Shown here piece by piece: positions 12,534 to 29,796 of a stretch of DNA of 64,000 nucleotides. The DNA is taken from NCBI GenBank assembly GCA_963719225.1, contig CAVRAY010000002.1:384001-448000 (forward strand), read 5' to 3'. Numbering within the stretch: position 1 is the first letter of the stretch; each line of letters begins with the position of its first letter. The DNA is from Thermoanaerobaculia bacterium (GTDB lineage Bacteria > Acidobacteriota > Thermoanaerobaculia > UBA5066). Position numbers and translations under genes: made by a program. The notes beneath the pieces were generated by a model. It saw nothing but the letters and a program-made list of their open reading frames with translations. It had not been told where the DNA came from and ran no database searches.

Positions 12534-12582
12534 CTCCGTCAGCGGCCCGGTGCCCTCCGTCCCCGGCCGGGGAGCGCCCGTC
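12534..12582 (+). promoter_or_regulatory. Triple direct repeat with 21-bp period (LytTR-type operator) upstream of TonB receptor 3
   Basis: CTCCGTC 12534, CTCCGTC 12555, GCCCGTC 12576. Confidence 0.55.
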
Positions 12583-12675
12583 ACAACACCCGTGTTCGTA
12601 GGGTTCCGCGAACGCACTCTCCACCACACGACCCGAATCCTGCAGAGGTTCGGTCGCCTTGGGAGGAGGGGTGCG

Positions 12676-15600
12676 ATGCGCCATTCACGATGTCCTTTCC
12701 TGATCCTCGTCATCGCGTTCTGCGCGGCGTTCTCGGCCGTCGCGCAGACCACCGGCGACCTCGAGGGCACCGTCGCCGACCAGAACGGGGCGCCGCTCCC
12801 CGGCGTCTCGGTGGAGCTCAAGTCGCCGCAGCTCCAGGGCACGAGAACCGCCGTGACCGACACCGCTGGCCGGTACCGCTTTCCGGTCCTCTCCCCGGGC
12901 GTCTATTCCGTCACCGCGCAGCTGTCGGGCTTCGCGAAGGTGGAGCGCGCGGGGCTGAAGGTCTCGCTCGGCGCGACGACCACGATTCCGATCACGATGA
13001 GCATCTCCGTCAAGGAAGAGATCGTCGTGACCTCGGAGGCGCCGGCGGTCGACACCTCGAAGACGACGATCGGGACGACGGCGTCCCTCGACTCCATCCA
13101 GAGGCTGCCGCTCGGGCGGAACTTCGCGTCCATCGCGAGCACGGTCGCCGGGACCGGGACGGACATCTCCGGGAACGTCACCGTGTACGGGGCCACGGGC
13201 CTCGAGAACGCCTACATCATCGACGGCGTCAACACGACGGGCGTGAAGACGGGAACCCAGGCCAAGCAGCTCAACAACGAGTTCATCCAGGAAGTCGAGG
13301 TCAAGACCGGAGGCTACGAAGCCGAGTACGGCCGCGTTCTCGGAGGCACGATCAACGTCGTGACGAAGTCCGGCGGAAACGAGTTCCGGGGCGACGCTTT
13401 CGGCTACTACGATTCCGGATCTCTCGCGTCGAGCGACAGGCGCACGGCCGACCGGAGCGCCGCGAACCAGGGTGAGTTCTTCTCGCCGAAACGCCTCGAC
13501 ATCGGCGCGGATCTCGGCGGCTACTTCGTGAAGGACCGGCTCTGGTTCTTCGGAGCCTACGACCGCGTGAACCAGGACCAGGACTACACGCGCACGCTCG
13601 CGGTGCTTCGCGACGCGGCCCAGACGAAGGTCCAGACCTCGAACACCGACACGTACCGAAACAACCTCTACTCGGGAAAGCTCACGTTCCGCCTCGGGGA
13701 GTCGAACACCATCGCGGCTTCCATCTTCGGCGATCCCGGGACGTTCAGCGGGCGCTACGACCTGACGCAGATCTCCGTCATGATCGGCTCGGACGGCGCC
13801 TGGCTCGTCGACCGGAACGTCGGCGGCTCCGACTTCTCAGGTCGCTGGGACGGCCTCTTCGGCACGAAGTTCCTCGGGCAGGCGCAGGTCGGCTACCACA
13901 CGGAGAAAAGGCAGGACTCCAGTCCGCTCTCCGGCGTGCCGTACCTCGAGAAACAGCAGGCGGGCTTCCCCACGGAGTCGCTCCCCGGCTCCGGCCCCGT
14001 CTTTCTCGAAGACTCGAAATTCCAGCGCTACGTGTACCGGGCCTCCGGGACCCTGTTCGTGGGACCGCACGAGCTCAAGGCCGGCCTCGACTGGGAGCAC
14101 CTGAACTCGGACTTTTCGGAATCGTACGGCGGGACTGACCGGATCCGGACGCGGCTGACGGCGGCTGGAGCGCTGAACAACTACCAGCACCGCTATTTCG
14201 CCAAGACGCCCCTCTCCGGCGCGAACTGCCTCGGTCTCCTCGACCCGAGCGGTCCGGCGGCCTTCCCGAACTGCACCGGATACGCGATCGCGCCGACCGT
14301 CGACAACAACCCGATCACCGACAACGTCGGCCTCTTCGCGCAGGACTCCTTCAAGGTCCTCAAGAACCTCACGATCAACGCCGGGGTCCGCTACGAGCAG
14401 CAGCGCCTCAAGGACTTCACGGGCACGACGCTCGTGAAGATCGACGACGAGTGGTCGCCGCGCCTCGGTATCGTGTGGGACTTCGCCGGGAACGGCAGGA
14501 CGAAGCTCTACGCGAACTACGGCCGCTTCTACGAGGTCATTCCGCAGGACATCCAGACCCGCGCGCTCGGCAACGAGTTCATCATCTTCGCGCGCAACTC
14601 GAGCCCGACGGCGGACCCGGTCGACCTCTTCCTCGGCGCTCCCATCGTGCAGGGGGGCGAGCTCGTCCAGAACAACCTCAAGGGCATGTACCAGGACGAG
14701 ATCATCGGCGGCGTGGAAGTCGAGATCGCCAAGAACTGGGCGATCGGCATCAAGGGCATCTACCGCGGTCTCGGCCGCGTCGTCGAGGACCGCTGCGATC
14801 TCGCGATCAACCCCGACATCGCGCAGTACTTCAACCCCTCGAGTCCCGCGACCTGCGCTCTCATCAATCCCGGGCAGGGAGACGCGCTCGGGACGATCAA
14901 GGATCCTTTCGACACGACGTGCTACCCGAACGGCGAGACGGACGCGGCGGGCAACCTCGTCGCCGGGGCGCCGTGCGACTCCACGCAGCCGCGCCGTTAT
15001 TTCCGCGGCCTCGAGGTGACCGCGACGCACCGCTTCTCGAACAGCTTCTACCTCCTCGCGTCGTACCTCTACTCGAAGCTCGAGGGGAATTACTCGGGCA
15101 ACCTCTCGCAGACACGTGAGGGCGGCCAGGCGGATCCGAACATCAACGCCGACTTCGACTACCCCGGCCTCGTCACGAACGCCTCCGGCCGGCTGCGCAA
15201 CGACCGCACGCATCAATTCAAGGTTTCCGGCTACTACGCGTTCCCCTTCGGCCTGACGGTGGGCGCGAACGCCTTCTACAACACGGGCCGCCCGTACTCG
15301 ATCCGCGGCTGTGCGTCGGACGCGGTCGCGTGCAACGCCGGGTACAGCCAGGAGGGCTACCTCGTGCCGCGCGGCTCGGCGGGCGATCTTCCCGCGGCTT
15401 ACGAGGCCGACCTGCACCTCGAATACGCCTTGCGCTTCGGCAACGTCTCCGTCACGCCCATCGTCGACATCTTCAACCTCCTCGACCGGCAGGGCGTCCT
15501 GAGCCGTGAGGAGCTCTTCAACAACACCGGCGCGACCGCCGCGAACGACCCGCGGAGCGGCATCGGCCAGCCCGGGTGCACGGCGCAGAACGCGAGCCTG

Positions 15601-15696
15601 ACGAACGCCGCGTGCGCCTCGAATCCCACGTACACGAAGGACATCGGGTGGCAGAACCCGCGGGTGCTCCGTCTCGGCGCCCGCGTGTCTTTCTGA
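12676..15696 (+). CDS. TonB-dependent receptor, Oar-like
   Basis: GGAGGAGG RBS before ATG 12676; signal peptide MRHSRCPFLILVIAFCAAFSAVAQ; EVKTGGYEAEYG..GG.INVVTKSGGN; terminal ARVSF. Confidence 0.93.
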   Translation: MRHSRCPFLILVIAFCAAFSAVAQTTGDLEGTVADQNGAPLPGVSVELKSPQLQGTRTAVTDTAGRYRFPVLSPGVYSVTAQLSGFAKVERAGLKVSLGATTTIPITMSISVKEEIVVTSEAPAVDTSKTTIGTTASLDSIQRLPLGRNFASIASTVAGTGTDISGNVTVYGATGLENAYIIDGVNTTGVKTGTQAKQLNNEFIQEVEVKTGGYEAEYGRVLGGTINVVTKSGGNEFRGDAFGYYDSGSLASSDRRTADRSAANQGEFFSPKRLDIGADLGGYFVKDRLWFFGAYDRVNQDQDYTRTLAVLRDAAQTKVQTSNTDTYRNNLYSGKLTFRLGESNTIAASIFGDPGTFSGRYDLTQISVMIGSDGAWLVDRNVGGSDFSGRWDGLFGTKFLGQAQVGYHTEKRQDSSPLSGVPYLEKQQAGFPTESLPGSGPVFLEDSKFQRYVYRASGTLFVGPHELKAGLDWEHLNSDFSESYGGTDRIRTRLTAAGALNNYQHRYFAKTPLSGANCLGLLDPSGPAAFPNCTGYAIAPTVDNNPITDNVGLFAQDSFKVLKNLTINAGVRYEQQRLKDFTGTTLVKIDDEWSPRLGIVWDFAGNGRTKLYANYGRFYEVIPQDIQTRALGNEFIIFARNSSPTADPVDLFLGAPIVQGGELVQNNLKGMYQDEIIGGVEVEIAKNWAIGIKGIYRGLGRVVEDRCDLAINPDIAQYFNPSSPATCALINPGQGDALGTIKDPFDTTCYPNGETDAAGNLVAGAPCDSTQPRRYFRGLEVTATHRFSNSFYLLASYLYSKLEGNYSGNLSQTREGGQADPNINADFDYPGLVTNASGRLRNDRTHQFKVSGYYAFPFGLTVGANAFYNTGRPYSIRGCASDAVACNAGYSQEGYLVPRGSAGDLPAAYEADLHLEYALRFGNVSVTPIVDIFNLLDRQGVLSREELFNNTGATAANDPRSGIGQPGCTAQNASLTNAACASNPTYTKDIGWQNPRVLRLGARVSF

Positions 15697-15756: not shown

Positions 15757-18700
15757 TCACTTCGGCAGGTCGACGATCGCGAACCGCCCCTCGAGGTCCG
15801 CGACGAAGAGGCGGCTCTTGGGAAGGAGCGCGAGGCCCGAGGGCTTCTCGAACTTCTGGCCCTCCGGCTGGTCCTTTCCCTTGAGCGTCGTGACGAGCCG
15901 GCCTTCGTTCGTGTAGGCGCGAATTTCGCCGGCGAGAGGCACCGAGACCCACAGGAGTCCCTTCGAATCGACCGCGAGGTACGGCTCGGACATGACCTCG
16001 CGCCGCCAGCCGGGGACGTCGAAGGCGCGCAGGAACCCCCCGTTGCGGTCGAAGACCACGATGCGGCCGTTTCCGTTGTCGGCGACGTAGACGTTACCGT
16101 CCTTTCCGGCGGCGATTCCCTGCGGGTCGGCGAGCTTGCCGGGCTCCGTCGTTCCCCACTCGGCCTCTTTGTGTCCGAAGCCGTCGAAGCGGACGACGCG
16201 CCCGTTCCCCGTGTCCGCGACGAAGACCGAGCCGGCCGCGTCCACGGCGATCCCGCGCGGTCCGAAGAAGCCGCCGGCCCATTCGCGCAGCCAGGTGCCC
16301 TTCTCGTCGAAGACCTGTACGCGGCCGTTCCACGTGTCGGCCACGAAGACGAGACCCGACGGGCTCACCGCCACGCCGCACGGATCGTTGAATTGTCCGG
16401 GCCCGCTGCCACGCGTTCCGAGCGCCAGGAGGAAGACCCCGTCCGGTCCGAAGAGCTGCACTCTCTGGTTTCCGAAGTCCGCGACCCAGACGCGCCCGCG
16501 AGCGTCCGATGCCGCCCCGCGCGGCTGGCGCACGCGGCCCGCGGCGTCGGCCGGCGGCGAGGGAGTCGCCTGCTCTTTTCGCGGCGCGGAGGGAAGCTCC
16601 TCCACGCGCACCGGCGCCGCCGCGACGCCCGGCGCGAAGACGCCCTTCACCGCGAAGAGGACCATCTCCGGATTCCGGTAGACGGGCGTGAGGAGATCCG
16701 TCCACGACTCGAACCGCGCCAGATTTCCGCCGGCGTAGATCCGGCGTTCGAGGTTCCCGACGGCCACGAGGGCCACGTGGTACCTCAGGAGGATCCGCCT
16801 CACGGCTTCCTCCTCGGCGAGGGTGTACGCCGCCGTGACGTCCGCCTTGCGGCGGTCGATCTCGGGCTGCGCGTGGCCGCGCTGGAACACGTGGTAGTCC
16901 CATCCCAGGACGGTGGGAAGCCCCGTATTCATCGAGAGGCGGGTGAAGTCCTGGTACGACGGGCCCTGCGCCTCGAGGAGCACGGGCAGACCCTTTACGT
17001 TCTCGTTGATCCACTCGATCGCCCCGCGGTCGGAGGGGTTCTGCTTCTCGAGATAGGCCGTCCCGTCCAGGGTGAAGCGCGGCCAGCCGCCACGGTCGAG
17101 CCGTAGGAACCCCGCGAACGCCGTGACGGTCGTGTACAGGGCAGCGAAGCCCGCGAGGACGATCGCAGCGCGCCAGGCGATCGATTTCGAAGCCCGGAAC
17201 GTCTCCCAGGCGAGAGCTCCCGCGAGGGAGAAGAGAAGCCACGTCTCGAAGTGGAACTTGAAGATCGTGTTCATCCGGTCCCACACGTAGATGACCTCGC
17301 AGCCCGTCAGGATCGCGAAGCCGAACGCGGTGAGCGCGAGAGCGGGACGCAGGCGGTCATCGGTCGGCCGGCGGAGCGCCGCGAGGAGGGTGACGAGGAA
17401 GGCGACCGCCGTGAAGAAACCCGAGGACGGCGTCTCGGCGAGCCGTGGCGGATGGAGAGACAAGGACACGAGGGAGAGCGGGAGGGCGACCGCCGCGAGG
17501 ACGAGGAACGCCTTCGCCGCTCTCCCGACGGGGGCGGCGCTTTGCTTCCAAGCGACGAAGGCGAACGGGACGAGGAGCGCCACGAAGAACGCCCAGACGT
17601 TGAAGAAATCCCAGGGTTGCGCCCAGGGGCCGACCTCGCGCCCCCAGTTCCGCGGCGGGGGCGAGAACCGCGCCCAGAACGGACGCGCGAGGAGCGCCCC
17701 CAGGAGGACGACTCCCGCCGCCGGCAGGAAGACGCGGGCCACGAGTGCCTGGGCCGAGCCGGCGAACCCGGCGGGACGCGTCCCGAGCCAGAGAACTCCG
17801 GGCAGGAAGAGGAGAAGGCACGTGTAGACGGGAATCGACCAGCCGTTCGTGATCTGGAGCGCGGCGAAGAGGAGACCGGAAAGACCGACGAGCGCGATCG
17901 CATGACGGGAAGCGAAAGGAGCCTGCCGGTCGCGTGTGACGAAGAGAAGAAGGGCCGCGACGAAGGCCGCGGTGAAGGGCAGCGCGAAGACGTGCGCGTG
18001 CAGGTCCGCGAAGAGGAAGCTCCAGAACGGGTACTCGTTGATGGCGTTCGGCGCGATGACGCGCGACGTGGCCCAGAAGTAGTGCCAGTCGAGGGCGCGG
18101 CCGGCCTGGCGGAAATGGAAGTCGAACGCCGTCCGCGGTCCGGACGGAGGCGCGAGAAAGAGCGCAAGGAGAACGGCGACCGCGCCGGTGCGAAGGCGGC
18201 CCCCGAGTGCGGCGCCGGCGGCGAGGATCGCGGACGCCGAGAGCGCCGCCGTCATCGCGATCGCGAGGTTGAAGAGGATGCCCGGATGAATGCCGAGGAG
18301 CTTTCCCGCCGCCGCAGCCAGGAAATGGCCGAAATACGTGTACGAGAGCGGCGTGCCGGCGAGCCAGGGCTCGGGCGGAGGAAGCTCCGTGGACCTCAGG
18401 AGCGTGTTCAGGAACGAGAAGTCCATCGGCTTCTCGCCCGAAAAGATCTCCGGGTTCAGGGCGCGCACGGCGAGGAAGAACAGGAACGTGCCCCAGAAGA
18501 CGAGCGCCGTCTTCCGGCGCTCGGGCGTCGGCGTGGCCTCGCGCGCCCGGCGGCGACCGGAGAAGCCGGCGAAAAGGAGCGCGAGAGTCGTGACGGCGAG
18601 AAGTCCGCGCGTGAACGGGGCGACGCGCCACGCGACGAGGAGCCAGGGCACGAACGCGAAGAGGAGGACGCCAGTGACGCGACCGAGAGCCTCCCGCCCC

Positions 18701-20568
18701 GGACGCGCCGGAAGAAGAGCCGACAGGATCCCCGCGCCGGCCAGGCCCGTGAGCTCGAGCCACGCCGCGAAAAGGAGTAACGCGAGGAGGGAAGACCGCA
18801 GGCCCGGAAGGCCCCGTCCCGTTTCGGCGCTTTCCGCGATCGCCGGCGCCGAGACCGCGGGACGCGCGAGGAGAAGGTCGTTCCTCGTGAGGGTCTTCGA
18901 AGGTGTGGCGGAAAGGAAGGCTTTCTCGATCGCTTCGGCGGGCATGCGCTTCGTGTTCTCGAAGAACACGACTTTCGGGTGGTCGTAGACGGTGAACGAC
19001 TCGTCCGCGAGCTCGTCGGGGATCCGGATCCCCAGGAGCGACGGGCGCGAGGCGACCTCCCGTTGGAGCGTGTAGCCCAGGTCGCCGGAAAAAAGGAGGC
19101 GGAAGGCGCGGTTCGTGAGAGGGAACTTCTCGGGTGCGCGCGTGACGGCGCCGTAGAGTCGCTTCGTCTGGAGGACCAGCCAGTCCGCTTCGCCAAGCTC
19201 CCGCGCGAGCTTGGACATCTTCTCGGGCGAGTCGGGCTCGTAGAAGCCGAACGTGACGATCCTGTAGCGCTCGGCGAGGCGGCCCGGAAGGCTGAACGGG
19301 AACCCTTCGTCCCAGTCCTGCTCGAGAACCCGCGCGCCGTCCCGGACGTGGTCGTGAAACCACAGTGACGCCGTGACGGAGCTGTGCGGACGCGTGTAGA
19401 TCGAAAGGAACGCGAGGGCCCACGCGGCGGTCCCGCCCACGACGAGGACTCGCAGCGCGCGTCCCGCGCGTCCCTGCCCGGCCTTCTCGGTGAGCCAGGC
19501 CGCCGCCCAGAGAGCGAGGAGTGGATAAACGGGGAGGAGGTACCGCAGGAACTTGACCTCGAAGGTGCACGTCAGGAAGACGTAAGGCACGAAGAACGAG
19601 GCGAGGATCCACTCGGCCGGCGAAAGGGCGCGGAAGCGTCCGAGGCGCCGTCCGGCCGCCCAGAGGGCGGTGAGGCCGAGGAACGGCCCGAGGCCCCAGA
19701 GCACGATCTCCCGGGCCTCGTACAGGAAGTTCGGGACGCCGATGTACTGGTTCGTGTACGGCACGATTCCGGCGTGGCGGACCATCGCGCCCTGCTCGGA
19801 CACCGAGCGCCAGAACTCGCGGAAGTCGAGAAACGCGTAAGGCTCGCCGAGAAAGAACGCGGCGAAGGCCGCGACGCCGCCGATCGCGAGCAGAAACGCC
19901 CCCCGGCCCCAGGCGCGCGCCGGCCGGCACGCGAGAAAGACGGCGACGGCGAGCGGAAGGAAAAGCGGCGCCGCGCTCGCCTTCGTCGCGAGCGCGAAAC
20001 CGGTGAGCGCGCCGGCGAGAAGGGCGTCGCGCGAGCGCCCCCTGAGCCCGAGGCGGACCGAAGCGGCGAGCGCGAGGAGGACGAAGAGCGTCAGCGTCAC
20101 GTCCGTGGCGGCGAAGTGCGACGTCTGGAGGTGGAGGACGGAAAGCGCGAGAAGGAGGCCCGCGAGGAGGCCCGCCTTTTCGCCGTAGACGCGTCGGCCG
20201 ATGGCCGCGACGAGAAGGACGGTCAGGGCCCCGGCGAGGGCCGACAGGAAGCGGCCGACGTGGATGACCCCGTCGTAGGAGGCGAACCACCCCCGGCCGG
20301 TCACCTCGACGAGGAGCGCGGACGCCGCCTTCGTGAGATAGAAGGGCAGCGAGCCGTACGCGAAAAAGTGCGGGTTGAGCTGGAGCGGGTGGAACGAGAG
20401 CTTGAGGATCGCGTCGCCGATGGCGCGCTCGTCCGGGTGGAAGAAGTGGTTCTGGTCGAAGTCCAGCCCGACGAGGCGGATGACGAAGGCGAACAGGGCC
20501 AGAAGAAGCAGGGGTGTGCGGAACGCTCGCGGCGACGGGGCGGGTCCCGCGGGCTCTGACGGGATCAT
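15757..20568 (-). CDS. Large membrane protein: GT-C (GT39/ArnT-like) + DUF2298 (Chlor_Arch_YYY-like) + C-terminal NHL repeats
   Basis: FHPDER, NPHFFAYGSLP; NPEIFSGEKPMDFSFLN, YTYFGH, INEYPFWSFLFADLHAH, RMNTIFKF, TGLPTVLGW; NHL repeats PRGAA..VADFGNQRVQ, VADTWNGRVQ, VADTGNGRV. Confidence 0.85.
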   Translation of the reverse strand: MIPSEPAGPAPSPRAFRTPLLLLALFAFVIRLVGLDFDQNHFFHPDERAIGDAILKLSFHPLQLNPHFFAYGSLPFYLTKAASALLVEVTGRGWFASYDGVIHVGRFLSALAGALTVLLVAAIGRRVYGEKAGLLAGLLLALSVLHLQTSHFAATDVTLTLFVLLALAASVRLGLRGRSRDALLAGALTGFALATKASAAPLFLPLAVAVFLACRPARAWGRGAFLLAIGGVAAFAAFFLGEPYAFLDFREFWRSVSEQGAMVRHAGIVPYTNQYIGVPNFLYEAREIVLWGLGPFLGLTALWAAGRRLGRFRALSPAEWILASFFVPYVFLTCTFEVKFLRYLLPVYPLLALWAAAWLTEKAGQGRAGRALRVLVVGGTAAWALAFLSIYTRPHSSVTASLWFHDHVRDGARVLEQDWDEGFPFSLPGRLAERYRIVTFGFYEPDSPEKMSKLARELGEADWLVLQTKRLYGAVTRAPEKFPLTNRAFRLLFSGDLGYTLQREVASRPSLLGIRIPDELADESFTVYDHPKVVFFENTKRMPAEAIEKAFLSATPSKTLTRNDLLLARPAVSAPAIAESAETGRGLPGLRSSLLALLLFAAWLELTGLAGAGILSALLPARPGREALGRVTGVLLFAFVPWLLVAWRVAPFTRGLLAVTTLALLFAGFSGRRRAREATPTPERRKTALVFWGTFLFFLAVRALNPEIFSGEKPMDFSFLNTLLRSTELPPPEPWLAGTPLSYTYFGHFLAAAAGKLLGIHPGILFNLAIAMTAALSASAILAAGAALGGRLRTGAVAVLLALFLAPPSGPRTAFDFHFRQAGRALDWHYFWATSRVIAPNAINEYPFWSFLFADLHAHVFALPFTAAFVAALLLFVTRDRQAPFASRHAIALVGLSGLLFAALQITNGWSIPVYTCLLLFLPGVLWLGTRPAGFAGSAQALVARVFLPAAGVVLLGALLARPFWARFSPPPRNWGREVGPWAQPWDFFNVWAFFVALLVPFAFVAWKQSAAPVGRAAKAFLVLAAVALPLSLVSLSLHPPRLAETPSSGFFTAVAFLVTLLAALRRPTDDRLRPALALTAFGFAILTGCEVIYVWDRMNTIFKFHFETWLLFSLAGALAWETFRASKSIAWRAAIVLAGFAALYTTVTAFAGFLRLDRGGWPRFTLDGTAYLEKQNPSDRGAIEWINENVKGLPVLLEAQGPSYQDFTRLSMNTGLPTVLGWDYHVFQRGHAQPEIDRRKADVTAAYTLAEEEAVRRILLRYHVALVAVGNLERRIYAGGNLARFESWTDLLTPVYRNPEMVLFAVKGVFAPGVAAAPVRVEELPSAPRKEQATPSPPADAAGRVRQPRGAASDARGRVWVADFGNQRVQLFGPDGVFLLALGTRGSGPGQFNDPCGVAVSPSGLVFVADTWNGRVQVFDEKGTWLREWAGGFFGPRGIAVDAAGSVFVADTGNGRVVRFDGFGHKEAEWGTTEPGKLADPQGIAAGKDGNVYVADNGNGRIVVFDRNGGFLRAFDVPGWRREVMSEPYLAVDSKGLLWVSVPLAGEIRAYTNEGRLVTTLKGKDQPEGQKFEKPSGLALLPKSRLFVADLEGRFAIVDLPK

Positions 20569-20591
20569 TTCGCTTAAGATAGCGGGAAGAA

Positions 20592-21791
20592 GTGTACGAC
20601 ACGGATTTCGGGCCGAGCAGGCGCCCGCTCGCCGCCAACCTCGCCCTCCTGCTCGGCTCGACACTCGTGGCCCTCGCCCTCTGCGAGGTCGGCGCGCGCC
20701 TCCTTCTTCCCCCGCCCCAGACGGTCGAGGTCGAACAGAAGAAGGAGGCCTACGAAGCCCCGAAGGGCTTCGAGCGGCTCGAAACGCAGGCGGACAAGTC
20801 GATCGACTCCGTCGTCCTCTTCGGCGGTCCCCACGGCGTGAGGCTGCGACCGAACACGCACGGTGAGATTCATCAACACGTCCTGAGCCGCCGCGACGTC
20901 GTCATCGACGTCAACTCGCTCGGCCTGAGATACCCCGAGCTCCCGCCCAAGGCCTCCGACGAGTTTCGCGTCCTCGTCCTCGGGGACTCGATCACGTTCG
21001 GCGACTTCGTCCTCGAGGAAGAGACGTGGACGCGCCGGATGGAGGCGCTGACCAAGGGCAGGAAGAAGATCGTTCGTTTCATCAACGCGGGCCTGCCGGG
21101 AGCCGGCACGGCCGAGGAGCTCTCTCTCTTCCGCGAGATCGGACCGAGCGTGAAGCCCGATCTCGTCCTCGTCGGGATGTATCTCAACGACGCGCAGTCG
21201 GGAAGCCTCTTCTTCGCGAAGAAGCTCCCGGGGGTGTGGGGAAAGAGTCGATTCCTGTCCTTCCTGTCGGACCGCTTCCAGCTCCTCGACACCCGCTTTT
21301 TCAAGAGCGCTCTCCCCGGGGCGATCGATCCCGGCTGGAAGGAGACGTTCCGTGCGGGGCGGGATCTGAAGTCCGGCGACATGTTCGGGACGCGCGTCGG
21401 GTTCGACTTCGAGATCTACAACGCCTACATGGACTTCGGCCTCGGCTGGAACCCGAAGGCCTGGAAGGTCCTCGAGCCGATCACGGCTGCGCTTCGCGAC
21501 GACGTGAACAGGGAGTCCGCCCGCCTTGCCGTCCTGCTGTTTCCCGTGCACATCCAGGTGTTGGGGACCGTCGAGAGGTTCGAGCCCCAGGAGAGCTGCC
21601 GGGAGATGTGCGCGCGCCTCCACGTCCCGTTCGACGACCCCGTTCCCGAGCTGCGCAGGACCTGGCAGTCCAGGCACGAGAGGCTCTTCTACGACCACTG
21701 CCACTACACGCCGGCGGGCTACGAGGTCCTCGCGAGGCAGACGGTGGACTTTCTGGACGCTGAAAAACTGATTCCCCCGCCGGTCCGCTAG
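20592..21791 (+). CDS. Membrane-anchored SGNH/GDSL hydrolase-family protein
   Basis: N-terminal TM anchor, INSLGLR-like VNSLGLR, LGDSITFG, INAGLPG, YLND, D-H-C-H (DxxH) near the C-terminus. Confidence 0.85.
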   Translation: MYDTDFGPSRRPLAANLALLLGSTLVALALCEVGARLLLPPPQTVEVEQKKEAYEAPKGFERLETQADKSIDSVVLFGGPHGVRLRPNTHGEIHQHVLSRRDVVIDVNSLGLRYPELPPKASDEFRVLVLGDSITFGDFVLEEETWTRRMEALTKGRKKIVRFINAGLPGAGTAEELSLFREIGPSVKPDLVLVGMYLNDAQSGSLFFAKKLPGVWGKSRFLSFLSDRFQLLDTRFFKSALPGAIDPGWKETFRAGRDLKSGDMFGTRVGFDFEIYNAYMDFGLGWNPKAWKVLEPITAALRDDVNRESARLAVLLFPVHIQVLGTVERFEPQESCREMCARLHVPFDDPVPELRRTWQSRHERLFYDHCHYTPAGYEVLARQTVDFLDAEKLIPPPVR

Positions 21792-21794
21792 CTC

Positions 21795-24700
21795 ATGAAG
21801 AAGGCGAGGCTCCGCGATTCGTTGCCGCTCGCCACCGCCTTCGCCGCCTCTTTCGCGCTGCTTTGCGCCGTGGCGTTCCAGGGCCGCGGCGAAGCGGCCC
21901 GGGGCGACCGCGTCCTCGGCGCGCTCGACGGCCTCGCGTTTCGCTTTCGCGCCTCGGCGACCGTTCTTCTTCCCTGGGCGTATGCGCACCGTTCCGGGTG
22001 CGCGCTTTTCGCGACGCTCCTTCTCGTGACGATCGCGGCGGCCGCGTGCGCGCGCGGAGGCCGGCGCGGAATCCCGGCAGCGCTCCTGTCCGGAGCCCTG
22101 GCCGCCGCCGCCTGGGGCGAGATCCTCCTTCTCGAAGGCGCGCGCATCGCGGGCTGGACGTTTTTCGCCGCCGCCGTCCTGGCGGCGGGTATCGCCGCGC
22201 ACGTTCGACCACTCGCTTCGGTGCCGGGCTTTCCCGCCCTGAGCGCGGAATCCCGCCCCCGGACTTCCGGGGAATGGGCTCTTCCGGGCTGGACCGAGTC
22301 CCTCGGCCTCCTCGCGCTCGTGGTCCTCGCCCTCTTCGCGCGCGCCTGGGCCGTCAACCAGCTTCCCTCCATCTTCGACGAGGAGATGATCTCCGTCCAG
22401 ACGCAGAGCCGGACGGCCCACGGCCTGAAGCAGTTCGTGGCGACCGAGTTCGTCGGAACGAGCAACGGCCTCGCGACGCCGGCCACGAACCGGGTCGTGT
22501 TCGGGGCGCTCGGCGTCTCCCTCTACGCGACGCGCGTCACGGCCCTCGTCTGGGGCCTCGCGGCCGTGCCGCTCTTCTGGGGTCTCGTCCGACGCCTTTG
22601 CGGAGGCCCTCTCGCGACCTTCGGCGCGACGCTCCTCTTCGTCTGCGCCCCCGAGCAGCTCTTCTGGTCGAGGAGCGAGGTCTCCGTGTTCGCGCCCGTC
22701 GCGCCGCTCGGCCTCCTCTTCGCCCACGTGGGCCTGTCGATGGTGGAGCGGTTCGGAGTGGCGCCGGTCGTCCTGGCGGCGTGCCTGACTCCGGTCTGCC
22801 GCTTCTTCTACACGGCGGGCCACGTCTTCTTCGTCTACCCGGCTCTTCTCGCGGGCCACGCCGCGCTCTTCGTGAAGGGCTTCGCGCGCCGCGCGCTGCG
22901 CGCCGTGCCCGTTCTCCTCCTCGGCGTCCTCGTCTGGGGCTTCAGCGTCTCGATCGCCGTCGCCGCGGCCGGCGGCCCGAGACGGTTCGTCGATCCGGCG
23001 CAGGTGCGCGGCGAGCCGGCCTGGCGGGCCGGGTTCCCCGCAAACGCTTCGGCGGCGGAGGTCCTGCGCGGGCAGGCATCGCGCGTCGCGGGGAATCTCG
23101 TGAGCGTGGGCGCGAGCCTGACGGCGCACCAGGCATACGCGACCCACTGGTACGAGCGCTACACCGTCGTGCCCGCAAAAGATCCGATGGTCCCGGTGGG
23201 GCTCACGATCCTCGCGACCGTCGGCTTCGGCACTCTCCTCGGCCAGATCGCGGAGCGACGCGCCGCCCTCGTTCTCTTCTGGCTCGGTCTCGGCCTCCTG
23301 CCCGGCGTCCTTTCGGACGAGCCGGACGCCCGGCGGCTCTCGGTCATCTTCGTCCCGATCCTCCTGCTCGCCGCGATCGCCGTGACGACCTGGGTCCGCC
23401 TCGCGCGCGACGCCGGCGGCCGCGCCGCCGGCCACTTCGCGTGCGTGGGTGCGGGTCTCGCGATCGCGTGCGTCGCGGCGTCGGGCCTCGCGTCGAATCT
23501 GCTCCTCCCGGTCGCGCCGCTCGTGCGGGACGAGCAGATCCGCTTCGCACGCCCGCTCGTCGAAAAGAGCGACGTCGTCCTCCACAACCTCTTCTACCGG
23601 TTTGGCAAGACTCTCGAGTTCGGCTTCCTCGACCGGCTGCTCGCGCCCTCCGGGCCGTGTCTGCAGTTCGTCGACCGCGGCGACGAGCTCCTTTCGCTCC
23701 TGACGCCGAGGTGCGACTTCACCGAGGAGGTCTACGATCTGACGCTCGCGCCCGCCGAGATCGAGAAGAGGCGGCGCGCTCACCGCGCTTTGCGAGTGTC
23801 GTATCTCTTTCGCGACACGCCGTCCGCCCGAAAGGCCGTGGCCCTTCTCCCCGCGGTGGACAGCGGAGCGCGCGTCCTGGAACGCGACTGGCCCTCCATG
23901 GGAGAGCGGCTCATGGCCTTCGAGGTGAATCCCGGAGCCCTCCGCGCCGCAACGGCGCCCCAGGAGTCTCCGACCGGGGTCTCCGGCGGCTTCCTGGTGC
24001 CCAAGCCGGGATGGTACCGGCTCGTTCTGTCTCCGCCCTGCCCGGCCGCGCGGGTCGCGGCGCTCGGTTCGCGTTGGAACGGAGAAGAGGAGCGACCCCT
24101 GCTTCCGGGCATCTTTCCCTTCGAGATCTCGGGCCCGACGGCCTGCGCGTCGAGTGCGCGGCCGTATCTCGTGACCTCGGGCACCGACACACCCTTCGCG
24201 CCCGCCCTGACGACACCCGCCCTCGCCCTTTTTCCCGAGACGCGGGGCACCGAGCCGGTCCCGTTCGCGGGCTGGTCCCGCGCGCGTATCGTCCTGCGCA
24301 CGGCGGATCGGATCTCGGACTTCGGCGTCGACCGCGAAGGGCGGCTGTACGCGCTCTTCCTGCGCGACCAGGCGTGGGAAATCCGCCGATATTCGCGCGG
24401 CGGTGCCGAGACGAAGCGCGTGCGCGCGGACCTGCCGCTCGACGCGAGCACGGGGACGCTTCTCGTCGAGCCGGACGGTGGTTGCATCGCTTTTTCGCTC
24501 CGGACTTTCGAGCGCTTCGACGAGGACCTCGTGCGCCGGGAGCACTGGGAGCTTCCGGGCGGGCGCAGCGGCTCTCACGCGGCGCGCCTCCCGGGCGGAC
24601 GGCTTGCCGTTCTGACCGGAACCTTTCTCGAGATCCTGAACCCGGCGGGGCGCGTCGAAAGTACGTGGGGGTCCGAGGGAGAGTCGACCGGCCAGTTCGA

Positions 24701-25088
24701 GCTGCCGATCGCCGTGACGTTCGCGGACGAAAGGCTCGCGGTCGTCGAGGAGGCGGGGAACGTGCACGTGTTCCGCCTGACCGAAAACCCGATCACGTTG
24801 AAGAGAGAGAGCCGGTTCCAGCTCGCCTTCGCGCGCGAGCCGCATTCCGAGTATCTCCGCGGCGCCGCGCTCGACGGGTCGAGGCTCCTCGTTCCGTACA
24901 ACCCCGCCGAATTGCCGCTCATCGTGGATCTCCAGGGCACCCGCCTGATGCCGGCGCGATCCACGAGCGACCTCCATCGCCAGGACCTCGCCTGGCCCTA
25001 CCGCTTTTCGCACCTGCCGCGCGAGCTTTACGTTCTCGACGCGGTCGACTCCGCGATCCACGTCCTGACGCCGGGCGAGGCGCCGTGA
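21795..25088 (+). CDS. GT-C (GT39-like) membrane glycosyltransferase with C-terminal beta-propeller (NHL-like)
   Basis: Multiple TMs, LPSIFDEE acidic loop, GVSLYATR, GQFELPIAV propeller-like repeats. Confidence 0.7.
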   Translation: MKKARLRDSLPLATAFAASFALLCAVAFQGRGEAARGDRVLGALDGLAFRFRASATVLLPWAYAHRSGCALFATLLLVTIAAAACARGGRRGIPAALLSGALAAAAWGEILLLEGARIAGWTFFAAAVLAAGIAAHVRPLASVPGFPALSAESRPRTSGEWALPGWTESLGLLALVVLALFARAWAVNQLPSIFDEEMISVQTQSRTAHGLKQFVATEFVGTSNGLATPATNRVVFGALGVSLYATRVTALVWGLAAVPLFWGLVRRLCGGPLATFGATLLFVCAPEQLFWSRSEVSVFAPVAPLGLLFAHVGLSMVERFGVAPVVLAACLTPVCRFFYTAGHVFFVYPALLAGHAALFVKGFARRALRAVPVLLLGVLVWGFSVSIAVAAAGGPRRFVDPAQVRGEPAWRAGFPANASAAEVLRGQASRVAGNLVSVGASLTAHQAYATHWYERYTVVPAKDPMVPVGLTILATVGFGTLLGQIAERRAALVLFWLGLGLLPGVLSDEPDARRLSVIFVPILLLAAIAVTTWVRLARDAGGRAAGHFACVGAGLAIACVAASGLASNLLLPVAPLVRDEQIRFARPLVEKSDVVLHNLFYRFGKTLEFGFLDRLLAPSGPCLQFVDRGDELLSLLTPRCDFTEEVYDLTLAPAEIEKRRRAHRALRVSYLFRDTPSARKAVALLPAVDSGARVLERDWPSMGERLMAFEVNPGALRAATAPQESPTGVSGGFLVPKPGWYRLVLSPPCPAARVAALGSRWNGEEERPLLPGIFPFEISGPTACASSARPYLVTSGTDTPFAPALTTPALALFPETRGTEPVPFAGWSRARIVLRTADRISDFGVDREGRLYALFLRDQAWEIRRYSRGGAETKRVRADLPLDASTGTLLVEPDGGCIAFSLRTFERFDEDLVRREHWELPGGRSGSHAARLPGGRLAVLTGTFLEILNPAGRVESTWGSEGESTGQFELPIAVTFADERLAVVEEAGNVHVFRLTENPITLKRESRFQLAFAREPHSEYLRGAALDGSRLLVPYNPAELPLIVDLQGTRLMPARSTSDLHRQDLAWPYRFSHLPRELYVLDAVDSAIHVLTPGEAP

Positions 25089-27931
25089 GCACGTCCTCGG
25101 CGGCGCCGCTCCGGACGCTCGCCCTCCTCGCGCTCGGTTTCGCGTTCGCAGGCGAGGAGCTGATCCGGACGGGCCGGGCTCCGTGGGCCGGCATCGGCGC
25201 GCAGCTCCTCGCGTCGGGTCTCTTCGCGTGGGGCGCCTGGCCGCGGCCGGCGCCACTCGGGAATGCTCCCACGGCGCGCCGGAGAGGCACGGGCGCTCTT
25301 CTCGCATTCGCCGCCGTCTCTCTGGGCGCGATCGCGTCGATCGTGTGGTGCCTCAGGCTCTACGCCCACGGCCGCGACGTGGCCGCCGAGGGCCCGTGGA
25401 TCGCCGCGATCCTCCTGATGGCGGCGGCCGGCTTTCTCGGAGGCGAGCTCACGGCCATCGCCCCGCGCTGGGACGCCGCGCCTCCTCTCGAGAGCCGGAC
25501 CCGCCGAGGCCTCTTCGCGCTCGCGGTCGTCCTGATCCTCTGCCTCGCGGCTGCGACGCGCCTTCCCGCGCTCGACAGGATTCCCTTTGGGATTAACGCG
25601 GACGAGGGCGATCGGGCCGCGGTGTCGCTCTCGATCCTCCGGAGCCACGACGTGACGCCGCTCTTCGGCGTCGGCTGGTACCACATCAGCATCGTCTACT
25701 TCCGGCTCCTCGCGGCGGTCATGCGCGTGGCCGGAGCGACCGTTGCCGGGGCGCGGACGTTCGGCGCCCTCTGTGGAATCGCCACCGTGGGTCTCGTCCT
25801 CGCGCTCGGGGTCAAGCACTTCGGGCGTCGGGCCGGCCTTCTCGCCGGACTCCTCGTCGCTTCTTTCGGACCGGCTCTGCAGTTCTCGCGGGAGACGACG
25901 GAGGCGAGCCCCACCGCCACGCTCTGGACCGCGAGTGCGCTGCTGTTCCTCGAAGCGGCGCGCGGAGGACGTGCGTGGGCCTGGATCCTCTCGGGGCTCG
26001 CGGGAGGCTTTTCGCTCTACTTCTATCCGACGGGACGCCTGTGGAGCGTCCTCGCGATCCTTTTCGTGATCGCGCTCCTCGTGACCTCTCCGCGCGGCAC
26101 GCGCGCGAAGATCCTCTCGGGAGCGCTCCTCGCGGCGGTCGCGGCGCTCGTCATCGGCGCGCCGTTTCTCTACCGGGCGTACGTCAACCCGGACTGGTTC
26201 GTCGTGAGGGCCCGGGAGACGAGCATCTTCGTCAGCTCGAACCTGACGCGGCTGGCGTACGTCCATCGCGACTGGTCGACGCCCCGTCTCCTCCTCGCGC
26301 AGCTCGAGCGGTCGATCGGGATCTTCAACCGCTTTCCGGACGGCAACTATTTCTGGCCGACGGGAAAGCCGATCCTCCCTCCCGCGCTCGCGGCCCTGAC
26401 GATCACCGGCCTCTTCGCGAGCCTCTGGCGCGTCCGGGATCCACGGCACGCCCTCCTTTCGGCATGGTTCTGGGCCGGATTCGTGGGGGTCATCGTCACC
26501 GTAGAGACGCCAAACCTCCAACGCATGGCGACAGCGGTACCGGTGCTCGCGATCTTCGCGGCGCTCGTGCTGGACGAGGTGGTGCGCCGCTTCGCGGCGC
26601 CTCTCCAGGACCGCCGGGGCCGTGCCGCCGTGATCGCCCTCGTTTCGGCGGCCGCGCTCGCGCTGGCGGCCCGAGAGCTCGTCTTCTACTTCGGAGACTA
26701 CGCGAAGCGTGACGCGTGGCCATACCCGCGGATCGAGGGAGGCACGGTCGCGCAGGAAGGCCGCGACGCCTGGGTCGTGAGCCTCGGCAACCAGTTCCAC
26801 ATGGTCAACTCGGGCTGGGTGTATCACCTCGCGCCCGACTCCCATCGCGCGGGAATCCTCTCTCCCGGGTTCCACCTCCCCCTGACGATCCCCGCGAACC
26901 GCGATCTCGCCTTCCTTTTCTATCCCGGGCAGGACGTGTACCGGCACTTCGTCGAGGGCATCTATCCGGGTGGGAGCACGCGCCGTGTTTCGACTCCGCC
27001 CGACCAGTGGATCTTCGACGTGTATCGCGTGCCCCTCTCCACGTGGCGGGCCACGCAGGGAGCGCTCGTGCACCTCCCCGAAGGCCCCGTCCACGTGCTC
27101 TCACTCGGAGATCCCGCGCCCGCGCCGCGCTCAAGCTCGGGAGGGAGATGGACCGCGGCGATGCGCGTGCCTCGCTTCGCCAACACTGCCTTCCGCCTCG
27201 GCCCGGGACCGGCCCGCCTCACGATCGACGGCCGGGAGGTCCTGTCGGTGGCGGCGGGCGAGCCGGTGAAGGAAGTCTCCCTGTGCCTCGCGCGCGGCGA
27301 TCACTTCGTCGAGCTGGACACCGCGGGCGAGGGCCGTCCTCCCGCGCGCCTTCTCTGGGCTCCGTACCTGGCCCCGGGAGCCGAGCCCGCCTTCCAGACG
27401 ATTCCGCCCGCGATCCTGAGACCTCTCGCCGAACCTCCGGGCGGGCTCTTCGGCGTCGTGACCTTCCCCGGTGGAAGGAGGCTCGAGCGGCTCGACGGAA
27501 CGCTCGCGACGTGGAACCTTTGCGAGGAGTTTCAGTTCGGCGGCGAGCCCTTCGAGGCCGTGTGGAGGGGATCGCTCGTCCCTGCCGTTCCGGGGACCTA
27601 CAAGTTGGGACTTCTGGCCTACGGAACGGCCGAGCTCAAGATCGACGGGCGGACCATTCTCAAGAGCGAGGGGGCGCACGACGAGCCGATTGTCGCGGAC
27701 CTCGAGCTCTCGAGAGGAGAGCACGCCGTCGAGCTCACCTTCAGGCAGACCGTCGAGCCCGCGAGACTCGAATGGTCCTGGACGGAGCCCGGCGGGCAGA
27801 CCACCATCGTGCCGCCGTCCGCACTCCGTCCTCCTCGGGGCGCGGGCGTTTCGCCGCCCAGGAAGCCTGAAGACTTCGGACCGCCCGGGCGCCCCCCGCT
27901 CGTCGACCACGCCGTTTTCCTGAGGTGGTAA
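25085..27931 (+). CDS. GT-C (GT39-like) glycosyltransferase with C-terminal PA14 domain(s)
   Basis: GTGA overlap at 25085; IPFGINADEG acidic loop, FSLYFYP; PA14 pattern FEAVWRG.L....GTYKL...LKIDG...L..GEHAVEL.F......LEWSW..PGG...IVP. Confidence 0.8.
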   Translation: MSTSSAAPLRTLALLALGFAFAGEELIRTGRAPWAGIGAQLLASGLFAWGAWPRPAPLGNAPTARRRGTGALLAFAAVSLGAIASIVWCLRLYAHGRDVAAEGPWIAAILLMAAAGFLGGELTAIAPRWDAAPPLESRTRRGLFALAVVLILCLAAATRLPALDRIPFGINADEGDRAAVSLSILRSHDVTPLFGVGWYHISIVYFRLLAAVMRVAGATVAGARTFGALCGIATVGLVLALGVKHFGRRAGLLAGLLVASFGPALQFSRETTEASPTATLWTASALLFLEAARGGRAWAWILSGLAGGFSLYFYPTGRLWSVLAILFVIALLVTSPRGTRAKILSGALLAAVAALVIGAPFLYRAYVNPDWFVVRARETSIFVSSNLTRLAYVHRDWSTPRLLLAQLERSIGIFNRFPDGNYFWPTGKPILPPALAALTITGLFASLWRVRDPRHALLSAWFWAGFVGVIVTVETPNLQRMATAVPVLAIFAALVLDEVVRRFAAPLQDRRGRAAVIALVSAAALALAARELVFYFGDYAKRDAWPYPRIEGGTVAQEGRDAWVVSLGNQFHMVNSGWVYHLAPDSHRAGILSPGFHLPLTIPANRDLAFLFYPGQDVYRHFVEGIYPGGSTRRVSTPPDQWIFDVYRVPLSTWRATQGALVHLPEGPVHVLSLGDPAPAPRSSSGGRWTAAMRVPRFANTAFRLGPGPARLTIDGREVLSVAAGEPVKEVSLCLARGDHFVELDTAGEGRPPARLLWAPYLAPGAEPAFQTIPPAILRPLAEPPGGLFGVVTFPGGRRLERLDGTLATWNLCEEFQFGGEPFEAVWRGSLVPAVPGTYKLGLLAYGTAELKIDGRTILKSEGAHDEPIVADLELSRGEHAVELTFRQTVEPARLEWSWTEPGGQTTIVPPSALRPPRGAGVSPPRKPEDFGPPGRPPLVDHAVFLRW

Positions 27932-27938
27932 GCGGTGC

Positions 27939-28736
27939 TCAGGGCGCGGGTGCTTCGGCCCCGCACCAATACGCCTGTTCCGCGATCGTCTCGAGCGCGG
28001 AGGAGCGATAGCGCCCCGACTCCCACGAGCGCCGAAGCGACGCGATGCGCAGGAGCATGCCCAGGGAATGGAGACCGAGGTGCACGGTGCTTTGCCCGGA
28101 GCGGCGCAGGCGGACCGGGACGCGCTTGATCTCGAGGTTGTACTTCAGCGCGACGTAGAGGAGTTCCACGTCGCCCGCGAAGCCGTTCTCCCTGAGGAGA
28201 GGGAAGAGCGCCTCCGCGACGTCGCCGCGGAAAGCCTTCAGACCGCACTGGGTGTCGAAGAGCCCGCCGGTCACGAGCATCCGCACGAAAAAGGAGAACG
28301 CGAGAGAGGCCGTGTCGCGGTGCCACGGCACGTGGGGCCTGTAGTCGGACGCATGGAGCGTGCGGTCTCCGGTGACGACGTGGAAGCCGCGGTCGTTCAC
28401 GAGGCGGGCCATGTAGGGAACCGCGTCGAGATCGAAGGGAAGGTCGGCGTCCGTGAAGACACGGCACCGGCCTCGGCTCGCGAGCATGCCCGCCTTCAGC
28501 GCGCCGAACTTCCCGAGGTTCCTCGGGAGAGAGACGACCCTGAGGCTCCGCGCCCGGGACGTGGCGAGGCGTTCCGCGGTGCCGTCCGCGCTGCCGTCGT
28601 CGACCGCGACGATCTCCCAGGAGAGGGAGCCCCGGCCCAGGAACTCGTCCGCATCGGCGAGGCTCCGCTCGACGAAATCCGCCGCGTTGAAGACGGGCAG
28701 GACCAGGGAGAGATCGGGAGGAGCTTCGACGCTCAC
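27939..28736 (-). CDS. GT2 polyprenol-phosphate glycosyltransferase (ALG5/Dpm1-like)
   Basis: LSLVLPVFN, VDDGSADGT, NLGKFGA, FTDADL, DTQCGLKAF, DVELL; GTGA-coupled start. Confidence 0.9.
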   Translation of the reverse strand: MSVEAPPDLSLVLPVFNAADFVERSLADADEFLGRGSLSWEIVAVDDGSADGTAERLATSRARSLRVVSLPRNLGKFGALKAGMLASRGRCRVFTDADLPFDLDAVPYMARLVNDRGFHVVTGDRTLHASDYRPHVPWHRDTASLAFSFFVRMLVTGGLFDTQCGLKAFRGDVAEALFPLLRENGFAGDVELLYVALKYNLEIKRVPVRLRRSGQSTVHLGLHSLGMLLRIASLRRSWESGRYRSSALETIAEQAYWCGAEAPAP

Positions 28737-29632
28737 GGAGCGGAGCTCCGGCGCGCCGTCACGAGCATCGAGCCCGAATTCGCGTAAAGGGCCGCGCGGC
28801 CCGGGGGGAGAAGGCGCGCAAACGCGCGCACGAGGCCTCCGCCGAACGGAAGGGCGTCGCCGATGCGCGAGAGAAGGAAACCTCCGGACACGTACTGGCC
28901 GCACGCGGAGAGGTGCTCGATCTCGAACTCCGGGGCGAGGGCCTCCGCGAGCGTCGACGGCGAGAAGTACGCGACGTGCTCGGGGATCTTGTAGGACACC
29001 CAGCGGCGCCCCGTCACGCGCGCGAGAAGGCTCTTCACGTTCGGCGTGGCGACGACAACCCGCCCTTCCGGCGCGAGGTGCCACGCGAGGTCCACCGCGA
29101 GCGCGCGGGGGTCGTAGACGTGCTCGATGACGTCGAAGAGCGTGATGACGTCGAAGGTCCCTCGGGGAAAGAGGCGGTCGGACAGCTTTCCGAGGCGGAC
29201 GCGGTCCGGATGGCGAGAAGACGCGATCGCGACCGCGGGCCCGGAGACGTCCAGCCCCGACGCGTCGTAGCCGAGCGCGCGCGCCGCCTCGAGGCCGGCT
29301 CCGGGACCGCACCCCACGTCGAGGAGGCGAGCGCCGGGCGCGGGAGGAGGGAGCCGCGAGAGGCGTCGGACGAACGTGCGGACGAGGAGCGGCTCCATGG
29401 AGGCATAAGAGGAGTATCCGCCCTCGGAGCCGCCCTTTTCCCAGTAGTCGTCGGATTCGTACAGGAGAGGGACGTCGCTCTCGGCGACGCGCGGGGTGAG
29501 ATAGCGCATCGAGCACGAGCGGCAGTCCACGACACGGTACGGCCCGAACGCGGCGCGCGTTCTGGCGGGAGGCGCCTCGCCGCAGAGCGGACACGTGCAG
29601 GTTTCGAGGCGGTACGGAGCGGCCGCAGGCAT
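28733..29632 (-). CDS. Class I SAM-dependent methyltransferase with N-terminal CxxC/CxxC
   Basis: CPLC, CRSC, LLDVGCGPG, FDVITLFDVIEHV, PEHVAYFS. Confidence 0.9.
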   Translation of the reverse strand: MPAAAPYRLETCTCPLCGEAPPARTRAAFGPYRVVDCRSCSMRYLTPRVAESDVPLLYESDDYWEKGGSEGGYSSYASMEPLLVRTFVRRLSRLPPPAPGARLLDVGCGPGAGLEAARALGYDASGLDVSGPAVAIASSRHPDRVRLGKLSDRLFPRGTFDVITLFDVIEHVYDPRALAVDLAWHLAPEGRVVVATPNVKSLLARVTGRRWVSYKIPEHVAYFSPSTLAEALAPEFEIEHLSACGQYVSGGFLLSRIGDALPFGGGLVRAFARLLPPGRAALYANSGSMLVTARRSSAP

Positions 29633-29796
29633 CGGGTGCTCTCCGATCGATAGGATACCGGTGACGATGCACGCGGGCGGCCCGGCGGCGTCTTGGCGGT
29701 GCCCTTGGTATCATGCGTCTGCATTCGGAAACGAGGCCGGAAACGCGGAAAGGCCCGCTCGGGACGCGTTTCGGGAGTTCGCGAGGAGTTACGAAG

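Follow-up and report, generated by a model that had tools for sequence, protein, structure and literature searches.

A conserved DUF2298-Agl23 core with a variable gene cassette: a predicted multi-component membrane glycosylation system in Thermoanaerobaculia

The stretch of DNA analysed here, called the window below, comprises 64 kb of the genome of a Thermoanaerobaculia bacterium (G000:C2:384001-448000) and carries six neighbouring open reading frames, genes A to F, at window positions 15757-29632. An earlier sequence-only reading had described these six genes, three of which encode giant proteins, as a self-contained island for the transfer of lipid-linked sugars outside the cytoplasm. All six genes were confirmed at their positions and found to be as described, and the PMT_2, DUF2298, TIGR03662, NHL and PA14 domains recognized in them all scored above the cut-offs of their families in our profile scans. 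Our data support the extracytoplasmic transfer of lipid-linked sugars, which we infer to be very probably the function of the locus. The locus is not self-contained, since gene A belongs with an operon 21 kb away and outside the window, and genes B to F are variable. We suggest that core and cassette together use polyprenyl-phosphate sugars to O-glycosylate exported proteins step by step in the periplasm, the probable sites being threonine-proline-rich linkers; in our judgement this proposal stands evenly balanced. Known multi-component systems for membrane glycosylation provide the pattern of which this one is a variant; the families on which it is built have been named but are uncharacterised.

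Gene A (15757-20568, minus strand; 1603 aa) joins an N-terminal PMT_2-type domain of the glycosyltransferase C (GT-C) class (54.3 bits; cut-off 26.1) to a DUF2298 domain at about residues 590-1310 (PF10060, 282.5 bits, cut-off 27.8; TIGR03662, 415.4 bits, cut-off 300.25) and an NHL propeller (116.3 bits). A model of residues 590-1320, built from an alignment of 95 rows, had a predicted local distance difference test score (pLDDT) of 93.2 and a predicted TM-score of 0.94. Foldseek returned 26 matches to this model at E <= 0.001; GT-C enzymes account for all 24 rows listed, in which DPY19, STT3 and AglB come first and TM-scores reach only 0.33-0.43. VIA, which we used here and for gene C to re-score Foldseek matches, gave a Z score of 18.6 for yeast STT3 (469 residues aligned; root-mean-square deviation [rmsd] 7.3), a tied Z of 17.9 for ArnT and a Z of 17.5 for AglB. 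The C-terminal part of the domain (model residues 585-719) matched the isolated AglB domain 3vu0 with a Z of 12.2 (rmsd 2.6; 117 residues aligned), and an AglB-type C-terminal globular domain is common to DUF2298 and other GT-C enzymes. E712 and an acidic residue at position 716 (D or E), which follow model helix 92-115, are each kept in 143 of 144 aligned rows; D855, H857 and H859 (D-x-H-x-H), N1100 and K1104 are invariant in all 144. These invariant polar residues resemble those of an enzyme and are candidate catalytic residues. DUF2298 is thus predicted to be a GT-C glycosyltransferase, and the suggestion that A contains a second GT-C fold is upheld by the model.

At the sequence level, the DUF2298 profile found nothing below E 1.9 among solved structures, profile-against-profile comparisons with Agl23 (probability 1.3%) and with an eight-row AglB-like profile (5.2%) were not significant, and for the domain of A the ESM Atlas matches were DUF2298 clusters without exception. 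The family is large, with 5,050 clusters at E <= 1e-30. The literature searched, which leaves out most subscription journals, offers no assigned function for DUF2298. WWDYG is the motif of the GT66 oligosaccharyltransferases. It is absent from the DUF2298 alignments, and the pattern W[WL]DxG occurs anywhere in the protein in just 2 of 150 representatives; a WWdYG-like motif is visible in the AglB alignment, and in a weak profile alignment (probability 5%) the DUF2298 segment EAxGxxYxxxxR falls at the WWDYG position. PF02516 (GT66) gave no match in A at E <= 0.01, nor is A among the PF02516 matches of the genome. Since WWDYG is absent and separate AglB-like genes exist, we regard DUF2298 as a predicted GT-C enzyme that is no member of GT66. 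The two AglB-like genes lie elsewhere in the genome (G000:C1; L081:2491-4524 and L082:6154-7662). A WDYG motif is present in the first, whose family profile matches Archaeoglobus AglB at 3e-27; the match of the second ends after about 400 residues, and this gene may be frameshifted. With the query used, an AglB-like gene was found in 9 of 41 relatives.

These observations bear on the idea that DUF2298 is a non-canonical oligosaccharyltransferase, which, once the other GT-C enzymes had matured the precursor, would transfer the lipid-linked oligosaccharide to protein in one piece, through an N-linkage or another. That the leading Foldseek matches are protein glycosyltransferases and that the C-terminal domain matches AglB would suit this idea, as would the finding that purified Agl23 of Haloarcula hispanica flips lipid-linked Man5GlcNAc2, an oligosaccharide-pyrophosphate-lipid, in vitro (PMC11182771). 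We nevertheless consider it improbable: the GT66 motif is missing, the genome has its AglB-like genes elsewhere, and N-x-S/T sequons in exported proteins, as sorted by a crude export classifier, show no excess (773 seen, 768 expected; ratio 1.01), which counts against broad N-glycosylation. Two or three tandem copies also fit a stepwise transfer better.

The operon with which gene A belongs (L080:9283-15447, i.e., G000:C2:374282-380446) lies 3.6-9.7 kb to the left of the window. It encodes a stand-alone DUF2298 protein (C2:376971-379073; 700 aa; TIGR03662, 365 bits; PF10060, 230.9 bits; both above cut-off) whose gene sits 21 kb past the end of A, an Agl23-family protein (571 aa; TIGR03663, 228.1 bits, cut-off 126.25) and an ArnC/GtrB-like family 2 glycosyltransferase (GT2; 326 aa). 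The three genes overlap by 4 bp each. Divergent from them is the gene for a PRK07233 flavoprotein (438 aa; 459.5 bits, cut-off 252), which may make or alter the donor sugar; a PRK07208-like flavoprotein is encoded near the locus in the sister family. The sequence-only reading had noted the lack of GtrA, Wzx and Wzy genes, and none of the six proteins indeed matched these families in profile scans; PF04138 (GtrA) had no match across the 97% complete genome, in which MATE-type flippases were not searched. A flippase candidate is present nearby nonetheless, namely the Agl23-family gene of the partner operon.

For prediction of a complex, we folded the membrane domains of the stand-alone DUF2298 protein (residues 1-556) and Agl23 (residues 14-412) with alignments of our own making, along with three controls. 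The pair scored 0.79, while the best of the three controls scored 0.00; contacts agreed by 100% between runs, and the pLDDT of the partners was at least 82. The mark for this score is reached by 116 of 157 solved pairs and by 2 of 215 mismatched pairs, benchmark counts that hold only roughly here because author-built alignments were used. The model supports binding of the stand-alone DUF2298 protein to Agl23 in a membrane complex; the predicted interface involves DUF2298 residues 403-428 and Agl23 residues 244-272, and its residues are only moderately conserved.

Genomic comparisons revealed how constant this gene set is; the unpublished genome G025 is counted in them, but is not the sole basis of any claim. 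Gene A was found in 22 of 24 genus relatives with 64-84% identity; G011, which was left out of the fetched loci, has a fragment, and G007 (53% complete) gave no match. Close homologues of A carry Thermoanaerobaculia/Acidobacteriota labels in the source databases. The agl23 gene directly follows that of the stand-alone DUF2298 protein in all 21 genus loci fetched (one of them cut by a contig end), with a 4-bp overlap in 20; the GT2 gene comes next in 19 of the 21 and the flavoprotein gene precedes in 20. Contig ends account for two of the misses, and in G017 the next gene is a different one. TIGR03662 and TIGR03663 have an identical distribution, in that 33 of 41 relatives have both and, of 14 controls, Haloferax volcanii and Methanosarcina acetivorans do; the remaining genomes have neither. 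In a draw of 121 genomes from the phylum, DUF2298 was present in 6, all of which have Agl23, while Agl23 was present in 16; three distant carriers have the two genes adjacent. The DE motif of Agl23 is invariant in the 38 family members found here. As judged by gene content and order, these comparisons show a conserved core made up of A, the stand-alone DUF2298 protein, Agl23, the ArnC/GtrB-like GT2 and the PRK07233 flavoprotein.

The core also occurs in rearranged forms. In half of the 150 representatives (75), DUF2298 is joined to an A-type N-domain, and in G134 two DUF2298 genes surround agl23 and adjoin genes for a free A-type N-domain and a GT2. A group of giants (P0121-P0133, mostly 2,000-2,750 aa) unites an A-type GT-C domain with two DUF2298 domains, i.e., three predicted GT-C modules per chain. 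In a quick DUF2298 tree, computed with fast settings on 477 columns of 188 domains and rooted at the midpoint, A-type and stand-alone-type copies separate, and by this rough tree P0126 joins one copy of each type. We make no claim that the second copies of the triple fusions are orthologues of the stand-alone type, as they did not group with it. Two genomes that have Agl23 and lack DUF2298 encode a Pfam-less protein of about 725 aa with 12-13 transmembrane segments, whose gene overlaps or abuts agl23 (L101:5761-7935 and L102:9836-12025); this protein may be a substitute GT-C partner.

The genes on the other side of A make up a cassette. Gene B (20592-21791, plus strand; 399 aa) encodes a membrane-anchored SGNH/GDSL protein (39.2 bits, cut-off 32.9) with one N-terminal transmembrane helix, a candidate acyltransferase or esterase. 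Gene C (21795-25088, plus strand; 1097 aa), for which the profile scan gave no Pfam or NCBIfam match, is predicted from its model (pLDDT 85.6) to consist of a GT-C domain, a periplasmic alpha/beta domain, a small beta domain and an NHL propeller. Its residues at about 160-712 matched PglB (Z 21.0; 435 aligned; rmsd 6.8) and ArnT (Z 20.6; 432 aligned; rmsd 5.2), and those at about 825-1095 matched NHL propellers (Z 22.1); its family is small, with 34 proteins found. Gene D (25085-27931, plus strand; 948 aa) combines a PMT_2-type GT-C domain (42.6 bits) with a PA14 domain (27.2 bits, cut-off 24). Gene E (27939-28736, minus strand; 265 aa) encodes a GT2 (69.2 bits) without a transmembrane helix and is likely a polyprenyl-phosphate sugar synthase; its best NCBIfam matches, PpgS and dolichyl-phosphate hexose transferase, are both far under cut-off. 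Gene F (28733-29632, minus strand; 299 aa), which overlaps E by 4 bp, encodes a class I S-adenosylmethionine-dependent methyltransferase (85.5 bits) with two N-terminal CxxC motifs. Gene G (29713-30309, plus strand), which travels with the cassette, encodes a small lipoprotein-like protein of no known family. The ESM Atlas matched it to unnamed clusters only. It can be up to 198 aa long; its true start is probably later, because the versions in relatives have only 138-175 aa.

A DE motif in the first external loop is common to the N-domain of A (HPDE, 44-47), C (FDEE, 194-197), D (ADEG, 172-175) and Agl23, and the DE of C aligns with that of Agl23 (hhalign probability 87.9). The predicted GT-C fold of the three large proteins thus draws on models for C and the DUF2298 domain of A, neither of which lacks the fold or the acidic motif in its first external loop that had been anticipated as a catalytic loop, and on PMT_2 matches and the DE motif for D and the N-domain of A. 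This latter domain had been called GT39-like, a name behind which A itself has only a PMT_2 match; some homologues carry PF02366 (GT39), and the nearest solved sequence relative is ArnT (E 3e-8). With a TIGR03663 score of 22.5 (cut-off 126.25), the domain is no member of the Agl23 family.

To follow the cassette, we fetched the slot upstream of A in 21 genus relatives; 15 slots were closed, running through to the Rieske-cytochrome bc genes, and 6 were open, one of which carries a transposase. The closed slots display eight arrangements, with B-C-D-E-F-G present in 5 of 15. In the others, scans of 53 and of 12 representatives revealed GT2s, methyltransferases, a UbiA-type phosphoribosyltransferase and different proteins with PMT_2, PA14 or NHL domains. 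A and its partner operon are constant within the genus; B-F, as a unit, is complete in just 5 of the 15 closed slots. The locus is not a compositional or horizontally acquired island, because its guanine-plus-cytosine content (0.67-0.72) matches that of its flanks (0.64-0.72 across the window) and only B-G is patchy. In our reading, the slot has the appearance of a locus for glycan variation that is joined to a constant core. A gene resembling UbiA-type decaprenyl-phosphate phosphoribosyltransferases (L023:13048-13932 and relatives; close to cut-off) closes the slot in 7 of the 15, and in G033 (L067:7630-9713) DprE1- and DprE2-like genes directly follow that of the stand-alone DUF2298 protein; together these genes hint at pentofuranose donors in some species.

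Might B-G instead be an independent modification module, so that core and cassette act on different substrates? Cassette and A are divergently transcribed, the content of the slot changes freely, the slot of G017 holds only B and G with a similar cassette located beyond the cytochrome bc genes, and GT-C genes are scattered over the genome. All eight slot arrangements, however, consist of glycosylation-type genes or their usual companions, a large GT-C-like gene is present in 14 of the 15 closed slots, and in the sister family the core is likewise flanked by GT-C, GT2 and methyltransferase genes. Independence of the two parts therefore appears unlikely to us.

Candidate acceptors emerged from repeat searches. 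Seven proteins of the genome carry threonine-proline repeats, all of them with a hydrophobic N-terminus (G000:C1:562424-567826, C1:3491019-3494525, C1:816772-818460, C1:3087365-3088762, C1:1687947-1689410, C1:1826843-1827523 and C2:23422-25728). Among the three families of the order, (TPTx)4 repeats occur in 24/24, 7/9 and 0/7 genomes and track both gene families. In the phylum draw they are present in 10 of the 121 genomes, 9 of which are among the 16 Agl23-positive genomes and 1 among the 105 others; counted by taxonomic family, the figures are 5 of 10 and 1 of 45. The control repeat (APAx)4, found in 11 of 121 genomes, shows no such link (1 of 16 Agl23-positive, 10 of 105 Agl23-negative genomes). 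For comparison, one GT39 enzyme is required to glycosylate enzymes with threonine-proline linkers (PMC6151902). Two of the seven repeat proteins have a hydrophobic C-terminal tail similar to a sorting signal. We claim no link to sortase, as IPTL-CTERM scored 16.9 on one repeat protein, below its cut-off of 20.5.

In the stepwise O-glycosylation that we propose, the core GT2 would load a sugar onto polyprenyl phosphate, and Agl23 would flip this donor and/or prime threonine with the first sugar. Chain extension would then be the task of both DUF2298 domains and of the N-terminal GT-C domain of A; C and D would add species-specific terminal sugars from the donor made by E, with methylation by F and acylation by B, and the PA14 and NHL domains would hold the growing glycan. 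That DUF2298 always occurs with Agl23, and not the reverse, fits an Agl23 that acts first. Provided that lipid-linked sugars are transferred outside the cytoplasm, our judgement leans slightly towards a protein as the acceptor.

Several observations weigh against this proposal. The fold cannot tell protein acceptors from glycan or lipid acceptors, because ArnT ties with STT3 and because ALG12, AftA and ALG9 align across the same range of the DUF2298 model. The score of the DUF2298-Agl23 complex, obtained with membrane domains only and with no other GT-C protein among its controls, may stem from mere likeness, because GT-C heterodimers such as Pmt1-Pmt2 have been solved. Action of the cassette on the product of the core is suggested by position only. 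Strict threonine-proline repeats are missing from 2 of the 6 DUF2298 genomes (G134 and G139), and the repeats are linked to Agl23 more than to DUF2298; 7 of 16 Agl23 genomes lack them, and one genome has them without Agl23. Kin are not independent, and the association comes down to 4-5 lineages. Since the genome has 24 PMT_2 matches, another GT-C enzyme could serve the threonine-proline linkers.

The same chemistry could also be directed at a non-protein acceptor, i.e., an envelope glycolipid, lipopolysaccharide (LPS)/O-antigen or a polysaccharide, as in the three-component systems of Gtr, ArnT or GT136, with the cassette serving as a serotype switch. Besides the tie of ArnT with STT3 and its position as nearest solved relative of the N-domain of A, LPS acceptors exist, because the genome has LpxC and five WaaL-type genes. 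One DUF2298 gene lies within a polysaccharide cluster on a Pseudobutyrivibrio plasmid, and the UbiA-type gene in the cassettes of relatives and the DprE1/DprE2-like genes of the sister family recall pentofuranose systems (PMC11127046). LPS cannot be the general acceptor, however, because H. volcanii and M. acetivorans have the DUF2298-Agl23 pair and no LpxC match, and a non-protein acceptor leaves the threonine-proline link unexplained. We regard this alternative as possible but rather doubtful. The genome has two LpxC copies with near-equal scores (G000:C2:30237-31034 and C2:772988-773788) and is listed at 6% contamination.

The six genes are neighbours, as had been claimed, but do not form one operon; they are arranged in three transcription blocks, with A running leftward, B-C-D rightward and F-E leftward. 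Only 23 bp separate the start codons of the divergent genes A and B (window 20568-20592), which leaves no space for ordinary promoters. Because of this short distance the start codon of B is uncertain, and one of the two starts may be miscalled. No match to a sigma-70-type promoter was found, and terminators showed no clear excess (15 against 9.4 +/- 3.3). Between A and the partner operon lie three genes for carboxypeptidase-domain TonB-dependent-receptor-like proteins and a LytTR two-component pair (window 1453-15696); in relatives this stretch ranges from a few kb to more than 20 kb. The fixed right edge of the slot, in front of which gene G is located, is formed by the genes for a Rieske protein and for a cytochrome b that carries c-type cytochrome domains in fusion (window 30393-32506).

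Several known families and systems come close to this one. A and the stand-alone copy pass the cut-off of TIGR03662 (Chlor_Arch_YYY, PF10060) and the partner passes that of TIGR03663, and the two families co-occur and are adjacent; a difference is that the present genome distributes them over two loci, with a variable GT-C cassette alongside. In H. hispanica, an Agl23-family protein likewise stands beside a polyprenyl-phosphate GT2 (Agl22), and its donors are used for extracellular N- and O-glycans. There, Agl23 is called a putative flippase for the donors of both glycans (PMC11182771), whereas the family studied here keeps the DE motif typical of active GT-C enzymes and has DUF2298 partners. 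The streptococcal systems Pgf (PgfS with PgfM1/PgfM2) and GtrB/PgtC2, which glycosylate Ser/Thr-rich regions, also couple an ArnC/GtrB-like GT2 with more than one GT-C enzyme outside the cytoplasm; the two GT-C proteins of Pgf are of the YfhO type, in contrast to the six modules of the DUF2298, Agl23 and PMT_2 types found here (PMC12041528). PgfS is the best NCBIfam match of our core GT2, yet the score stays below cut-off (276.5 of 500), and we do not consider it a PgfS orthologue.

A likely polyprenyl-phosphate sugar synthase, a GT-C enzyme, a putative C-terminal carbohydrate-binding module and strain variation are shared with the three-component systems GtrABC, ArnCEFT and GT136, in the last of which the carbohydrate module binds the acceptor but is dispensable (PMC11127046). 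Gene E and the core GT2 belong to PF00535, and their best matches are polyprenyl-phosphate sugar synthases, all under cut-off. The present system differs in that no GtrA is encoded in the genome and several GT-C modules occur in tandem and fused. With STT3/AglB/PglB (GT66) and DPY19, finally, DUF2298 shares the predicted GT-C fold and the C-terminal globular domain; it differs from them by the missing WWDYG motif, an identity of 9-13%, the presence at its N-terminus of roughly three more helices that fall outside the aligned core, and the lack of any match at the sequence level.

For the large orphan family DUF2298, the predicted GT-C assignment, together with candidate residues for catalysis, a partner suggested by modelling and a candidate acceptor, makes a role testable. 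H. volcanii, a genetically tractable archaeon, carries both families. In the variable slot, nature has assembled a collection of divergent GT-C enzymes that carry PA14 or NHL modules, among them gene C, which lies outside any Pfam family. More tentatively, the Agl23-DUF2298 complex might be the core of an unrecognised protein O-glycosylation machine of bacteria and archaea that primes threonine-proline-rich linkers, extends the glycan by tandem GT-C modules, much as in the ALG and glycosylphosphatidylinositol steps of the endoplasmic reticulum lumen, and receives its species-specific tips from a swappable cassette. S-layer proteins of H. hispanica bear an O-linked Glc-Gal disaccharide (PMC9943897), and the enzymes of archaeal O-glycosylation are described as unidentified in two reviews (PMC6098224 from 2018; PMC8305020 from 2021). 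If our tentative proposal is true, the Agl23-DUF2298 pair of H. volcanii would be the long-missing haloarchaeal O-glycosylation pathway.

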